From Opitutales bacterium (GTDB lineage Bacteria; Verrucomicrobiota; Verrucomicrobiia; Opitutales; PNEW01), in assembly GCA_965197745.1 (NCBI GenBank), contig CBDANS010000007.1:768001-832000 (forward strand): a DNA stretch of 64,000 nucleotides. The letters run 5' to 3'. The notes beneath the pieces were generated by a model, which saw nothing but the letters and a program-made list of their open reading frames with translations, was not told the origin of the DNA and made no database searches. This document shows, in pieces, positions 1,983 through 59,250 of this stretch. The position numbers and the translations under genes are program-made. The number at the start of each line of letters is the position of its first letter. The first letter of the stretch is position 1.

Positions 1983-2830
1983 AGTTTAAATACCAACAGT
2001 TTTAAGCAATGGCTCTAACTGGTTGATAGGAATCTGTGTTCCACACGCACAGGTTTTTCGGCCGTTGTATGCATATATCCCAGTTCATGGTAGAAGATTA
2101 CGGGACGGAAAAAGGAATCAAGAATGAACAGGTTAATGACAAGGGTTGTATTCGATTGAAATGAAGGAGGTGATGCTATTAGAAGATCTGAGTAATACCT
2201 AATGAACGAACACTGCCTACTATCTTGCATAAGCTTATCTAATCATTGACGATGAGAAAAAGGATAGGCTATGATCTGTGTGATAAAATTCCTGATCAAC
2301 ATTCTTTTTTCTAATTACCCGAGAGGGTAAACCCATTTATCCTTACATGAATATACTACAAGACAGTCTTTCTTAATTTTCTCACAGTGGAACCGGGATA
2401 ACCTTTTCTCAGGTCGCTGCAATCTAGGTTTTTGCTAACGACTTCCTCGACCACCGGCTTTAGCTATACATTTTTTTAAAACTAATAGATAATATTTTAT
2501 AAAATTATAGAGAGGCACAAGCTAGCTGAGTTTCCTCGTTCTGCAAACGGTTCTATCTCATTTTCAATCCCAATCCTTTAGATTTTTGTGATGAAGTAAA
2601 TAATCATGTACTTGTAGATAAACTAGCGGTACTAAATTTATCATTGAAATTAACAAGCCAATAAAATCATCTAATAATTTATTAGATGCTGGAATAATTA
2701 AATTATAGATGTTCCTTTTACTACTTATGTATTAGCTCTATTAGATTTCCCAAAAAACTCATCAATTGTTTAATTCACACCAAAAATACTGTAAATAGCG
2801 TTGATCGGACCCCGTATTTCGTATCAAATT

Positions 2831-3827
2831 TTAAGTGAGAGAACTACCGGGTGTTAATGGTTTTAGGATTGATGTATATGAGAGATCTTGGCGCAGTGAG
2901 GGCGTAGCCCGAACGCGGCCAAGAGCGGAAAGGAATGTGACAAACTCTTGTGGGCTTTTAAAGCCTAATCGACTGTGGGGATGTTCATTGTTATAGGTCT
3001 GACGCCATTGTTCTATTAGCACTTGCGCTTCAGCCACGCTGAGCAACACTTCACGGTTCAAACACTCATCGCGTAAGCGGTTGTGAAACGACTCGATGAA
3101 ACCGTTTTGCCAGGGACTGCCCGGATCGATATATATCGCCTTGATCTTTTTGTCGGACAACCACTGCTGCACCTGATGAGCAATGAATGGCTTCGCATGT
3201 CGTCGCTTCGCTCCTCGGAACACTGCCGTTGTCACTGCGGATATAGCTAGGAACTCCCTCTTCATCGATGGTTTCGCTGAGTACCGAGAGAACATCGGTT
3301 GAGGTGAGCTGTCGAGCTACCCGGATGCGTAAACATTTACGCGTATATGTCTTCGCTTCGCTTGAGTGTCGTCGCTTTCAGCTCCTCGGTACATCGATCA
3401 AGGTCATCATCTTTAGCATACCGCCATTGTCTGTACGATCATGGACAAAGTCCCAGGACCAGACGTGATTGCGACCGGTTGCTTTAGTAGGGAGCCCAGT
3501 AGAGATCCCCTGACGGTGTCTACGCTTTTTCGGTGGCTTTACCTGTAAGCCCGAAGAACGTCGCACTGCCTGTACAAATTTCCTGCTTGCCGCCCAACCT
3601 TCTTTCACCAGCAAGGCACGAATGCGCCGGTAACCGTAACGGGGATGTTCCCAGGACAAGGTCAAAATCCGCTCGGCCAATTGCTGAGCCTTCTTACTGG
3701 CCTGCTTGGGTCGGTAGCTGTACGTTGACCAACTGAGGCTGAGATAAGCACAAGCCCTCTAAAACGAGCACAGCCCCTTCTCAGCCGCATCTTTTACTGC
3801 TCGCTTCTTCTGCTTTGGGCTCACCAT
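2831..3827 (-). pseudogene. IS3 transposase orfB (integrase core), disrupted
   Basis: HPRYGYRR, WSWDF, RSDNG and PGSPWQNGFIESF motifs split by an early TAG, a 45-nt insert containing TGA (3348-3392) and a 34-nt frameshifting insert (3188-3221). Confidence 0.88.
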
Positions 3828-4087
3828 TTTTTTGAGAGCGTTTCCTCCAACACCCGAAGCTTGAGCATTTGATCAGCGAGCATCTTCTTCAGCTCCGTAT
3901 TCTCCTTTTCCAGCTCTTTAAATCGCTTCGCATCAGCCAGCTCCAAGTTGCCATACTTTTTGCCCCAGCGATAGAAGGTCTGTTCACTTAGGTTGTTGCC
4001 GTGGCAGACTTCCTGCACGGTTTTGCCCGTATCGGGCTGCCGCAGTATTGCTATGATCTGTTCTGTTGTATATCTTTTTCTTTTCAT
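3821..4087 (-). CDS. IS3 transposase orfA (HTH)
   Basis: MKRKRYTTEQIIAILRQ...SEQTFYRW...KELEKEN.ELKKMLA; A7 run at the orfA/orfB junction. Confidence 0.9.
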   Translation of the reverse strand: MKRKRYTTEQIIAILRQPDTGKTVQEVCHGNNLSEQTFYRWGKKYGNLELADAKRFKELEKENTELKKMLADQMLKLRVLEETLSKKW

Positions 4088-4152
4088 TGAGGTTATCTGT
4101 TTATCCCGATAACCTCTCTCTGTTAATGATACCATTTTTGGGGGTCACTCCA

Positions 4153-10797: not shown

Positions 10798-11025
10798 TTA
10801 AACCCAAAATTAATATCCGCGATATTCGCGTCATCCGCGGTAAGATCTTGCTGTTTATTTTTGTGCCTCTTGCCTGCCGGTCATAGTCCCGCCACTGGGG
10901 GACGACGGTTGGTGCCTTTGAAAGATGTCGTCCCGGTGTCGCGGGACTCGGTAGTGGCTATCTTAAAAAAACCACAGCAGTGAATGTTACTGAAATAAAA
11001 GTTAAAGAATGGGCTATTTTAACTT

Positions 11026-15877: not shown

Positions 15878-16079
15878 GTCAAAAAGTCAAGAAGATATGC
15901 GGTAAGGCGTAAATGCGATAAAGCGTGAATGCGGATTAATACCTGAGACATAATGCAGGATGCGAGGAGACCCTAGAGATTACCCCTTATTCGCATAAAC
16001 ACATATACGCGTATGAGGATGACGAGCTACGCTCTCGGTACGCACATACCCTTCGACATTTGACTTTCGACTTTCGACT
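15878..16079. repeat. nested inverted array element (family A, 8-mer, GATGCAG)
   Basis: gtcaaaaagtcaag...gcggtaaggcgtaaatgcgataaagcgtgaat...ccttcgacatttgactttcgactttcgac. Confidence 0.8.
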
Positions 16080-30739: not shown

Positions 30740-31876
30740 TTTCAATCTTCAATTGTACCCGTAGAGCATTCGTTCCTGAATATGATTGAATACTGAATTC
30801 GGATTGCGGATATACACAGTCGAAAAGTATAATTATAATCTAAGAGAGGATCTTTAAAGAGGTGATTCTATTATTGCATTTTTGCAATAATATGGCATTG
30901 AAATACATGCAATTAATATCATGTAATGATATTCCTATTATTTTAATTCGAGTTCTTTCTTAAAATGAAGTCATAACGTCATTTTAAAGTAAAGAAATAT
31001 GGCTCTAATATACACCGATTCAAAACATGATGTTCTCGATGGTGAAAAAAATGCATCATGTGATCAGCAAAACCCCAGTACCCCACATCAATTGAATAAG
31101 GGTAGCCGACGTAAAAGGTTTTCTTTAAAGAAGAAACTCCTTTTTTCTGTCATTGTCGCTGGGTTATTTTTCGGAAGTCTTGAGTTTGTCTGTTTTCTTA
31201 CCAAGTCTCTCTATATTAATTTTCGCAAACTTGGTTTACCCGCATATGCGGTTAATTACATGCCAAGTACGATTAAATACACGCTTCGCGAAAACGTGCT
31301 TTCTAAACCGGACAAAGAACTTTTATTTCGAGTAGAGCAAAACCCATCAGGTTTATCTATGCAGGGTTATTCTGGAATTAATGCACATGGCTTTCGCGGT
31401 AATATTTATGATCCGAGTCTTATAAATAAAGATGAGACAAAAATTATGATTCTTGGTGACTCCTGTGCCTTCGGGTGGGGTATACGGGATTATGGACTTA
31501 CATTTCAGTCGATATTGGAAAAACGGTTAAATCAACGGCAATGTGACTATAAAGTTTATAACTTTTCACAACCCGGATACAGTTCCAGTCAGGGAAGAAT
31601 AATATTTGAAAAATGGTTCTCTAGAGTCAGTCCCGATCTTCTTATAATTTATTTAGGGTGGAATGATATCTGGGAAACACCGCTATTAACGGATAGCCAG
31701 AATCTTAATCTATTTAAATACACAAAAAAAACCCCCTTTAAGTGGATTCAAAAATCTCACACTTACCTGGCATTTGAATCTCTCTATCAATCGTTAATAA
31801 AACCAAGTGGTGAGTATGCAGATATCAAAAATAAAAAATTAAGAGTCTGATTGGACCCCGTTTTTCGTACCAATTA

Positions 31877-32873
31877 TTAAGTGAGAGAGTTCCCGGGTAT
31901 TAATGGTTTTAGGATTGATGTATATGAGAGATCTTGGCGAAGTGAGGGCGTAGCCCGAACGCGGCCAAGATCTGAAAGGAATGTGACAAACTCTTGTGGG
32001 CTTTTAAAGCCTAAACGACTGTGGGGATGATCATGGTTATAGGTCTGGCGCCATTGTTCGATTACAACTTGTGCTTCAGCCACGCTGAGCAACACTTCAC
32101 GGTTCAAACACTCATCGCGTAAGCGGTTGTGAAACGACTCGATGAAACCGTTTTGCCAGGGACTGCCCGGATCGATATATATCGCCTTGATCTTTTTGTC
32201 GGACAACGACTGCTGCACTTGATGAGCAATGAATGGCTTCGCATGTCGTCGCTTCGCTCCTCGGAACACTGCCGTTGTCACTACGGATATAGCTGGGAGC
32301 TCCCTCCTTTTCAATGGCCTCGCTAAGCACAGAGAGGACATCCGATGAGGGGAGTTCACGAGCGACCCGGATATCCAGACATTCACGCGTATATGGCTTC
32401 GCTTCGCTTGAGTGTCGTCGCTTTCAGCTCCTCGGTACATCGATCAGAGTCATCATCTTTAATGGACCGCCATGGTCTGTGCGATCATGGACAAAGTCCC
32501 AGGACCAAAGGTGATTGCGACCGGTTGCTTTAGTAGGCGACCCCGTAGAGACCCCTTGACGGTGTCTACGCTTTTTAGGTGGCTTTACCTGCAACCCTTC
32601 TGAACGTCGTACCGCCTGAACAAACTTCCTGTTTGTTGTCCAGCCTTCCTTTACGAGCAAGGCACGGATGCGCCGGTAACCGTAGCAGGGATGTTCCCAG
32701 GACAGGGTTATAATCCGCTCGGCCAACCGCTGAGCTTTCTTACTGGCCTGCTTGGGCTGGTAGCTGAAAGTTGACCAACTGAGGCTGAGGTAGGAACAAG
32801 CCCTTCGCAACGAGCACAGCCCTCTCTCAGCCGCATCTTTTACTACTCGCTTCTTCTGCTTGGGGCTCACCAC
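31877..32873 (-). pseudogene. IS3 transposase orfB, disrupted by two micro-inserts
   Basis: DDE motifs present; 45-nt insert 32394-32438 (contains TGA) and 34-nt insert 32234-32267. Confidence 0.88.
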
Positions 32874-33133
32874 TTTTTTGACAGCGTTTCCTCCATTACC
32901 TGATTCTTAAGCATTTGATCAGCGAGCATCTTCTTCAACTCGGTGTTTTCTTTTTCCAGCTCTTTAAATCGCTTCGCATCGGCTAGTTCCAAATTGCCAT
33001 ACTTTTTACCCCAGCGATAGAAGGTCTGTTCACTCACGTTGTTGCCTCGGCAGATTTCCTCTACCGTTTTTCCGGTATCGGCTTGCCGCAGTATTGCGAT
33101 GATCTGTTCTGTTGTGTATCTTTTTCTTTTCAT
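32867..33133 (-). CDS. IS3 transposase orfA (HTH)
   Basis: Paralog of 3821-4087 (8 of 88 aa differ). Confidence 0.9.
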   Translation of the reverse strand: MKRKRYTTEQIIAILRQADTGKTVEEICRGNNVSEQTFYRWGKKYGNLELADAKRFKELEKENTELKKMLADQMLKNQVMEETLSKKW

Positions 33134-33808
33134 GAGGTTATCTGTTTATCCCGATAACCTCTCTCTGTTAATGATACCATTTTTGGGGGTCACTCCAAGT
33201 CCCTATGGAGGAGGCGATTGCCAACTTCAAAGCCTTTATTGAATCAGCTGAAAATTATCAAACTGAAATTATTCTAATACTGCCTCCCGTATCCAATCGT
33301 GCGCCGCGATTGAGTGGTATACTGGAATATAATGAAAGTATCCGCTATGCTTTTCATGATAATGCAATGATCCTTAAATTAGATGACATGGATTATGACG
33401 CTCCATCTTCATACGGTTACTTTTTTCCCGATGGGTTGCATCCCAATACGGAAGGGGCAAAATATATTGCTTTTCAAATTGCACCCCTATGTCATCGCAT
33501 TGCAGCGATGAGAGCAGAAAGCAATAAAAGCAATGGTTCATTAACGCTTCGCGATGACGATAACCGCATTTTGCAGCGCACTCCGTAGATTGATTCTCTG
33601 AAGAGCACTTACTCTCAGCAAATTTTATATGTCTGGATATCAGGTATAAAGGCTTTTACTTGCTATCAAAGTTATGTCTCAATAAGATATTATTTTATCA
33701 TATGATTGAAATATCTTTTAATTTTTATTAACACAATTCGGGGTAAATCATTTTAGTATCGAACCACGAGAAGGAGCTGACTCTTTACTGATAAAATATA
33801 AATTTCCA

Positions 33809-55741: not shown

Positions 55742-55960
55742 CAGACGCGACGACGCGCGTCCCTCCAGAAAAGAACAAATGGGAGGGCCACGCGTCGTCG
55801 TGGCCGCTTAGGAGAATGATCATACAATTGAGATAAATTTAAATAGGATAAAGATTATACTCAAGACACTTTCATTTTTGTGTATCTTGTGCTTTTGGAA
55901 GATGTCGCCCTGCTATTGCAGGACTCGGAAGTGGCTATCAAATCGTGGACGAAATCGAAG
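55742..55960. repeat. REP-containing composite repeat with micro-insert
   Basis: Inverted REP pair (55742, 55781); 10-mer array carrying a 34-nt insert at 55898-55931. Confidence 0.8.
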
Positions 55961-58867: not shown

Positions 58868-59250
58868 GGAGGGCCACGCGTCGTCGTGGCCGTGGTTGTA
58901 ATATTTAAAAAGATTAATAAAATGGAGGGACGCGCAATGCCTGTCGGCCATAGCCCCGCAGTTGTGGGGTGACGGCTGATCGCGTCCGCTTAGGAGCATG
59001 ATTATAGGATAGGAGATATGGAAGATGTCACCCTGCTGTTGCAGGGTTCGGAAGTGGCTATCAAATCGTGGATGAAGACGAAGAAACAGACGAAGACGAA
59101 GATTATTATTGATATCATTCCCATCCAATCATCCAGGCATCCATCCTTCCACTTTTGTGAATTTTGTGCCTTTGAAAGATCTCGCTACACTCGGTAGTGG
59201 CTATTCTAATCGAAGACGAAGACGAAGACGAGGAGGCAGACGAAGATACT
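58868..59250. repeat. REP-containing composite repeat with three micro-inserts
   Basis: REP at 58868, REP with insert at 58924-58989, inserts at 59021-59054 and 59175-59197, gacgaa hexamer runs. Confidence 0.8.

Follow-up and report, generated by a model that had tools for sequence, protein, structure and literature searches.

Why would the transposase gene of an insertion sequence (IS) be interrupted twice, each time within a conserved motif, by short segments that share a core sequence? This question is raised by an IS3-family element in the window analyzed here, the whole 64,000-nucleotide (nt) stretch from position 768,001 to position 832,000 of contig CBDANS010000007.1 of an Opitutales bacterium (GenBank assembly GCA_965197745.1). 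In what we consider the likely explanation, members of a lineage-specific family of ultrasmall hairpin repeats, related to a repeat resembling the NTS of Neisseria, have inserted at the DNA level in both places and break the transposase gene. In our literature searches, we came across no paper that describes inserts of this kind within a transposase gene or the junction rule that they follow.

The host element (copy 1; positions 2802 to 4152, minus strand, 1,351 nt) has TG...CA-type terminal inverted repeats, its ends reading TGGAGTGACCCC... and ...GGGGTCCGATCA, and is flanked by CAGG and ACGC, that is, by no 4-bp duplication. Its layout is that of an IS3 element, with a helix-turn-helix protein encoded by orfA, a DDE (rve) core encoded by orfB, and an A-rich slippery run for −1 frameshifting. 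The orfA gene (HTH_Tnp_1, PF01527 at 70.7 bits; 3821 to 4087, minus strand) ends in a TGA stop codon just past the A7 run at 3827 to 3833. In profile searches, orfB matched NF033516 (the IS3 equivalog), HTH_21, rve, and rve_3, bearing out the IS3 assignment made in an earlier, sequence-only reading of the locus, but did so solely as three separate pieces, all on the minus strand. The first (3393 to 3758) comprises HTH_21 and the start of the DDE core, covers NF033516 positions 106 to 240, and ends in ...LID; the second (3222 to 3347; YTR...SDNGS) holds the second catalytic Asp motif and matches rve positions 33 to 76, weakly because the piece is short; and the third (2831 to 3187, including the stop codon; FIAHQ...PWQNGFIESF...) lies in a shifted frame and matches NF033516 positions 287 to 368 and rve_3 (91.9 bits).

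What separates these pieces are the two inserts. Insert 1 (44 nt; 3348 to 3391, minus strand), with the structure TACCGAGGAGC-TGAAA-GCGACGACA...GCGAAGCGAAGACA, takes the place of the last two bases of a GAA codon and leaves its G, at 3392, intact; in its minus-strand context, TTG ATC GAT (G TACCGAGG...GAAGACA) TAT ACG CGT, the parenthesized stretch from 3392 to 3348 is 45 nt long including the leading G. The net change of +42 nt is in frame and brings in a TGA, and three-frame translation across it gives LID-VPRS*KRRHSSEAKT-YTR. Insert 2 (33 nt; 3188 to 3220, minus strand), with the structure TTCCGAGGAGC-GAA-GCGACGACA-TGCGAAGCCA, stands in place of AG or AA in a Glu codon whose G is kept at 3221, and its context is GAC AAC GGC AGT (G TTCCGAGG...GCGAAGCCA) TTC ATT (3221 to 3188; 34 nt including the leading G). 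Here the net change of +31 nt causes a frameshift, the translation running SDNGS-VPRSEATTCEA before changing frame to FIAHQ. The placement of both segments within conserved orfB motifs (ID-E-YTR and SDNGS-E-F), with the frame broken, had been proposed beforehand and is evident from the translation and from copy alignment, as are the 45-nt in-frame stretch with its TGA and the 34-nt frameshifting one; the accompanying claim that the Glu codon is replaced needs correction, since Glu is indeed lost at both sites but the first base stays and the last two bases (AA or AG) alone are exchanged.

The core that the inserts had been said to share, CCGAGGAGC-N(0-8)-GCGACGACA, is present at four places in the window, two per IS copy, and absent from 100 dinucleotide-preserving shuffles (GCGAAGC itself is found 14 times, with 7.0 expected). 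The inserts are therefore a real feature of copy 1 and not a product of chance. The second IS copy (31848 to 33197, minus strand) belongs to a subfamily that is 89% identical to copy 1, contains both inserts (32394 to 32437 and 32234 to 32266), and carries a 4-bp target duplication, GACT. With the TGA of insert 1 and the frameshift of insert 2, copy 1 is unable to make transposase. A third defect is an in-frame TAG in orfB (CSF*RAC; 3759 to 3761, minus strand), an ordinary nonsense codon at a position where other subfamilies have TGG or CGN. This TAG is common to IS copies that are about 80 to 87% identical, in this genome and in another genus, despite divergence of these lineages under purifying selection; recombination may have carried it from copy to copy, or it may have arisen several times from TGG. 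For copy 1, 47 matching places were found in its own genome, 13 of them 99 to 100% identical.

Such a number of copies allowed the inserts to be compared with empty sites. We aligned 34 near-full copies of the IS clade found in the window (clade 1) and scored four orfB positions as filled or empty; in the empty states given here, hyphens set off the dinucleotide that is replaced. Site 1 (GAT G-AA-T AT; net change +42 nt) is filled in 28 copies and empty in 6, site 2 (AGT G-AG or AA-T TC; +31 nt) is filled in 31 and empty in 3, site 3 (GAT G-AG-T GT; +35 nt) is filled in 8 and empty in 26, and site 4 (TGG C-AA-A AC; +42 nt) is filled in 11 and empty in 22, with a deletion in the one remaining copy. 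Written as filled (F) or empty (e) across sites 1, 2, 4, and 3, the combinations are FFee (23 copies), FFFF (5), eFFe (3), and eeFF (3). In every filled state at all four sites, the same junction rule holds, S-AR-W becoming S-TWCC..CA-W: the first base of the codon is kept and the next two are swapped for a T(A/T)CCGAG...CA element. The absence of a target duplication, an earlier claim, was confirmed on these empty paralogous sites.

A second IS3 clade (clade 2; 37 usable copies) provides the cleanest comparison. Site 2 is filled in 32 of its copies and empty in 5, four copies are identical and fully open with every site empty, and nine others depart from these intact copies solely in having insert 2 and a single T-to-C change 3 nt downstream of it. 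Uninterrupted relatives, seen beforehand as the means of defining the exact target, are thus available, both as empty GAA/GAG sites and as intact relatives lacking the inserts. In four clade 2 copies (e.g., at C6:553716, C7:1061679, C1:9388, and C4:58904, contig labels of this genome, G000), a reverse-oriented 25-nt element lies precisely on the A8 frameshift site that separates orfA from orfB and also obeys the junction rule. So does an element at CCAC-AA-AAAG, and CCCTGAA tandem repeats fit the rule as judged from the repeat period. More generally, at least one empty paralogue was retrieved for 78 of the 1,077 T[AT]CCGAG loci examined. One clade 2 copy (C7:1466425-1466437, minus strand) has TAG in place of GAG at an empty site 2 (GGTTCC TAG TTC), a difference that may stem from a point mutation or represent a footprint. 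Of the four intact clade 2 copies, two (C7:1352654-1353940 and C4:136857-138145) are located directly downstream of tyrosine-integrase genes of approximately 420 to 430 amino acids (aa) (C7:1352039-1352509 and C4:136043-136489). We presume that the IESF codons of clade 2 orfB could spell a T-loop-like ATCGAATCC.

The inserts turned out to be members of a much more numerous family. A genome-wide search with the IS-type core, the check that had been proposed at the outset, gave 103 matches, 100 of which are in IS3 orfB copies and 3 beside tRNA genes, so the motif does recur elsewhere. A relaxed pattern describes a generic element (TACCGAG, a variable short hairpin, and CGACATC(TTC)CA) that sits in hundreds of noncoding places, and a strict parser recognized 210 elements, compared with 7 in a reversed-genome control. 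The loops of these 210 are mostly 3 nt long (GAA in 108, CAG in 17, GTA in 15, and AAA in 14), their stems measure 2 bp in 137, 3 bp in 61, and 4 to 6 bp in 12, and a G or C is found on the left of 196 of them, although copies are not independent. Hairpin 1 of the site 3 variant reads AC-GTA-GT where the others have GC-GAA-GC, which is a compensatory change. In summary, the family layout is 5'-T(A/T)CCGAG, a short hairpin (usually with a 3-nt loop), (C)GAC(G)ACA, and a tail ending in CA-3', with insertion replacing an AA or AG dinucleotide between G/C and T/A and creating no duplication. The sequence-only reading had pictured a microelement that parasitizes IS elements; IS-adapted variants do exist, but the family is genome-wide, with about 200 tiny repeats that lie mostly in noncoding repeats. 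Its companion idea, silencing of IS elements, holds as an observed effect, the breaking of the gene, and is not demonstrated as a function.

Within the window, generic elements were also seen outside any IS (10926 to 10953, 55896 to 55930, near 16040, and near 59196, all on the minus strand), several of them having the left flank ATAGCCAC in common and AAAGCAC-type repeats after the element. The three IS-type elements outside orfB each follow a tRNA-Asn or tRNA-Gln gene at a distance of about 100 nt (C6:355530-355700, locus L013 at ~1030-1200, and C5:236530-236610, locus L014 at ~1030-1110). They too follow the junction rule, at a T-loop-like GGTTCG-AA-TCC, and are followed by a duplicated tRNA 3' end that includes CCA, the outer stem covarying with the neighboring tRNA; Rfam found only tRNAs beside these copies, plus an RtT match below threshold (23.7 bits versus a 45-bit threshold). 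A core-motif scan of 185,579 species gave at least 111 stretches, which do not amount to a usable taxon count. Among the matches listed, most were chance or coding matches in GC-rich genomes and three passed a full-layout test, while further element-like matches, recognized by eye, came from Opitutales, Puniceicoccaceae, Coraliomargarita, and Woeseiaceae records. Some element-like sequences were located within T-loop-like or D-loop-like tRNA fragments (L092, Woeseiaceae; L086, Puniceicoccaceae; L176, L173, and L159), and insertion into tRNA-like DNA may be wider than the Opitutales. Finally, in a related genus, the main IS subfamily contains a different, 27-nt insert, ATTCACGAGCGCAAGCGAGAAGGCCTG, in orfA (G002 loci L043, L046, L049, L052, L055, L057, L059, and L061 and G001 locus L056).

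How the inserts came to occupy the same codons in so many copies can be approached from their divergence (this genome is labeled G000 and its relatives G001, G002, and so on, 41 genomes in all). Between the window subfamily and the 89%-identical subfamily, no difference is seen at any of the 44 positions of insert 1 or the 33 of insert 2, compared with 17 of 149 and 26 of 127 positions in the flanks, the second figure being for the 127 nt that separate the two inserts; the coding pieces between these subfamilies have a pN/pS ratio of 0.15 (pS, 0.35). In another genus (G001 and G002), the inserts are 100% identical at a whole-IS BLAST identity of 85 to 89%, and sites 1 and 2 are found as filled/filled, filled/empty, and empty/filled, both being empty only in the copy at L056, which has the 27-nt orfA insert instead. 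Insert 2 is the same, bar one G/A variant, in IS3 clades sharing only about 52% C-terminal protein identity. With inserts identical and flanks differing by 11 to 20%, the inserts must be younger than the IS lineages that carry them and must have spread late. Moreover, the insert variants are specific to their codon sites, as would be expected of copying from IS to IS rather than of insertion from a generic pool. In clade 2, the T-to-C change at +3 moved along with the insert and the next markers, about 13 nt to either side, did not (as read by eye from context lines), which points to very short-patch copying, perhaps from single-stranded fragments. On the basis of these sequence comparisons, the inserts probably moved as very short copied patches.

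Matching 4-bp flanks are missing in 19 of 25 and 14 of 17 IS copies, and some copies have one flank in common with another, which suggests frequent recombination between IS copies.

A possible source of such elements emerged from a small nuclease gene. This genome contains four copies of a gene for a 97-aa, single-domain GIY-YIG protein similar to Ssn (C7:1541992-1542282, plus strand; C7:1545599-1545886, C7:483586-483870, and C6:787861-788152, minus strand), with a Pfam GIY-YIG match of 50.2 bits and 1zg2 as the nearest solved structure. Two copies are intact and face one another across approximately 3.3 kb, and two are broken. All four loci are flanked by inverted repeats, TGTCATTGC...GCAATCCAG, also written TGTCATTGCGAGG...GACGNNGCAATCCAG, and small elements occur at these loci only within this NTS-like repeat, in three of the four upstream copies. 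The inner part of the repeat can read CGAGGAGCGAAGCGACGA, which is the exact 18-nt core of insert 2. Genome-wide, 134 5' arms of the repeat were found; 62 have an empty 3' arm (GC-AA-TCCAG), at least 35 have a small element, and most of the remaining 37 contain degenerate elements. Roughly half of these repeats have a small element at GC-AA-TCC. The repeat and a close ssn homologue are found together in four of four genomes (G000, G001, G002, and G015), which are related and not independent, and neither was detected in the other 37 relatives, apart from a weak protein match in G004 (E value of 9e-9). The small GIY-YIG gene is present in four of the five element-rich genomes.

Could the inserts be something other than insertions of such repeats? 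One alternative treats them as recoding elements: transposase would continue to be produced, either because the inserts are cut out of the RNA or because the ribosome passes over them, as it does at the T4 gene 60 gap, and the need for a skipping signal would explain their conservation. Their perfect conservation (0 differences in 77 positions) between flanks that differ by 11 to 20% and that are both under purifying selection in their own frames (pN/pS, 0.15 to 0.25) is what such a scheme predicts, as is the success of clade 1, in which every near-full copy has a frameshifting insert and 13 places are nonetheless 99 to 100% identical; nor are the changes within subfamilies clearly neutral. 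Against this, intact clade 2 copies without inserts exist that are otherwise identical to filled ones, empty sites occur at all four orfB positions, and the same elements populate hundreds of noncoding places. On reading the junctions, the codon ahead of insert 2 varies (AGT, TCC, or TCG) with no matching landing codon, and no single simple excision restores the Glu codon. None of the 44 tRNAs has a CTA, TTA, or TCA anticodon, so no suppressor tRNA for TAG or TGA was seen, and no Rfam family matched the IS at an E value of ≤10. Four sequencing runs were compared, two of them metatranscriptomes (all contigs, at a likeness threshold of 88%, uncovered parts being uninformative). Metatranscriptome contigs of run X17 bridge inserts 1 and 2 and also carry the site 3 and site 4 inserts, run X1 holds both filled and empty-site forms, and no joint skipping an insert was found in the covered parts, an argument of little weight, as these are contigs that may derive from DNA and belong to relatives' organisms. 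Rescue of the reading frame by RNA removal or ribosomal bypass hence has no support, and we regard the recoding scheme as very improbable.

Two further alternatives were considered. In one, a drive or host defense, a nuclease such as the Ssn-like GIY-YIG protein biases copying, filled alleles replace empty ones, and IS3 families are progressively silenced. In its boldest form, a 33- to 44-nt element descended from an Ssn-type recognition repeat would act as a within-genome drive: whenever it meets an IS3 transposase gene, even one with only about 10 nt of shared flank, it would be copied into that gene at the same codon, as a patch of about 40 to 60 nt, and would progressively inactivate whole IS families. 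The near fixation of the filled state at site 2 (31 of 34 copies in one clade, 32 of 37 in the other) would fit, as would the identity of each site's variant across clades with about 52% C-terminal protein identity and across genera, the shortness of the copied patch, and the link to the Ssn-associated repeat. But near fixation could equally reflect biased copying or a longer survival of harmless dead copies, which may simply outlast active ones; one genome, G040, has inserts without the nuclease gene; and the published enzyme cuts single strands beside its hairpin and is not known, in the parts of the paper considered here, to promote copying (PMC11893778). We hold both the general and the bold form to be unlikely. 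Somewhat less likely still is that the elements are classical REP-type repeats moved as single-stranded DNA by a RAYT or IS200-like Y1 (HUH) transposase. They are, to be sure, small tagged hairpins inserted without duplication, Y1_Tnp matches are present in all five element-rich genomes (46 in G040), and G000 has one RAYT-like open reading frame of 198 aa. Y1_Tnp is, however, also present in 17 of 36 element-poor genomes (22 of 41 overall) and so is not a specific partner. The only copy in G000 seems truncated by comparison with most of the relatives' matches, whose frames span ~330 aa, and no element adjoins it. In addition, there is no conserved 4- to 5-nt target to the left of the element, no replication-strand bias was seen, and loss of a dinucleotide is not a known product of the peel-and-paste mechanism. 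The GTAG class of REP/RAYT systems was considered separately and rejected: a tag-like (C)TAC before the hairpin mirrors, on reading, the GTAG layout, and the sole Y1_Tnp locus of G000 lacks an adjoining element.

We thus return to insertion of ultrasmall hairpin repeats related to the NTS-like repeat as the probable explanation. The first insertions would have been rare events on single-stranded DNA, catalyzed by some enzyme; we would suspect the Ssn-like nuclease first and, after it, a RAYT-like Y1 enzyme. Once present in one IS copy, an insert would spread to the same codon of other, even distant, IS copies, with a patch flank of approximately 13 nt or less per side, and the broken copies would persist and may multiply by means of transposase supplied by intact copies.

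Several observations weigh against this explanation or parts of it. None of the 34 near-full clade 1 copies is free of a frameshifting insert, and no helper for the clade is visible in this genome, although the ends of clade 1 partly resemble those of intact clade 2 copies (in a hand alignment only). The 4-bp duplications that flank 6 of 25 insert-bearing clade 1 copies having both ends, as well as 2 filled clade 2 copies, are compatible with movement of broken copies in trans and also with conversion after landing. Within subfamilies, changes number 16 synonymous to 17 nonsynonymous (fewer nonsynonymous ones than neutrality predicts) and 4 to 5, counts that recombination among the subfamilies may have shaped. 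Elements inside the NTS-like repeat are followed by one extra base (..CCA-T/C/A-TCCAG), which makes the junction rule inexact there. G040, with 131 generic elements and 57 IS-type motifs, lacks both the small GIY-YIG gene, as the one exception among element-rich genomes, and the NTS-like repeat; no enzyme is tied to the elements, and the lack of the gene in G040 makes the case for Ssn circumstantial. Matches to the degenerate SRM motif from the literature are no more frequent in the genome (16) than in a reversed-genome control (19), and neither insert fits this motif on either strand. Relative to GC skew, no replication-strand or orientation bias of the elements was found in this assembly of 7 rearranged contigs, unlike the situation for IS200/IS605-type single-strand elements, and no complementarity was seen, by eye only, between the variable tail of either insert and its target flanks. 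The hairpins, finally, had been described as exceptionally stable, a notion that our folding model did not support: in a DNA nearest-neighbor fold, the minimum free energies of −1.6 and −1.1 kcal/mol (z scores of +1.35 and +1.76 against shuffles) are not unusual. GCGNAGC minihairpins are reported to have special stability (PMC13037366 and PMC3201870), and for the present inserts, that property rests on this literature, since the calculation gave no extra stability.

The movement of micro-repeats of the REP, NTS, and SDR types is a decades-old question, since sites that can be seen cleanly both before and after insertion are seldom available. Exact filled/empty pairs now come from dozens of near-identical IS copies, and in these pairs a two-base-replacing junction without duplication, insert variants tied to codons, and patches of a few tens of bases shared between IS lineages can be read, and micro-repeat movement is thereby opened to experiment with one 97-residue nuclease and a few oligonucleotides. 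The pairs also show one way in which transposases can be disabled by a genome or by its repeats; and if the within-genome drive were true, no smaller homing element would be known, and insertion sequences would have a natural silencer in it.

Four known systems invite comparison. Programmed translational bypass is known from the coding gap of T4 gene 60 and from mitochondrial "byps," and it shares with our case short inserts that are not triplet compatible, in conserved coding sequence of an apparently successful element; here, no landing codon matches a take-off codon, the intact copies are insert free, and the elements are mostly noncoding. The SDR4 to SDR6 repeats of Nostoc and Anabaena, reportedly described by Elhai et al. 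in 2008, are said to be 21 to 27 nt long, their mobility having been deduced because some copies lie within larger repeats, IS elements among them, that are identical apart from this. They come from a different phylum and differ in sequence. Closer in form are the CGTC/TGTC-tagged REPs and the Rickettsia RPEs, described in the parts of Di Nocera et al. (2013; PMC3733652) considered here as short tagged stem-loops with no known dedicated transposase that are sometimes intragenic. On their complementary strand, our elements read TGTCG-hairpin-CTCGG, and a TGTCG or CGTCG before the hairpin corresponds, on reading, to the tag of the CGTC class. In contrast, the published stems are 8 to 9 bp long and start with A/T, with loops of 4 to 5 nt, neither of which applies to our elements, and most intragenic copies in the literature keep the frame and are tolerated while both inserts here break the gene (PMC3733652); the same parts of that paper report no CGTC repeats in Verrucomicrobia. 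The fourth system, NTS/SRM-SsnA, is known from the single-domain GIY-YIG nuclease SsnA (Chenal et al., 2025), whose substrate is single-stranded DNA, cut a few bases upstream of the hairpin. In the portions of that paper drawn on here, the enzyme has no known insertion activity and mobility of the motif is only speculated upon, and neither clean filled and empty sites nor a dinucleotide-replacing junction is described (PMC11893778). The small elements also differ in having 2- to 6-bp stems and 3-nt loops, and both repeats of this genome miss the published motif. The resemblance lies in the arrangement: single-domain GIY-YIG genes are flanked by inverted hairpin repeats, the ends of the TGTCATTGC...GCAATCCAG repeat mirror those of the Neisseria NTS (CGTCATT...AATCYRG; PMC11893778), and the IS inserts share the inner 18-nt core of that repeat.

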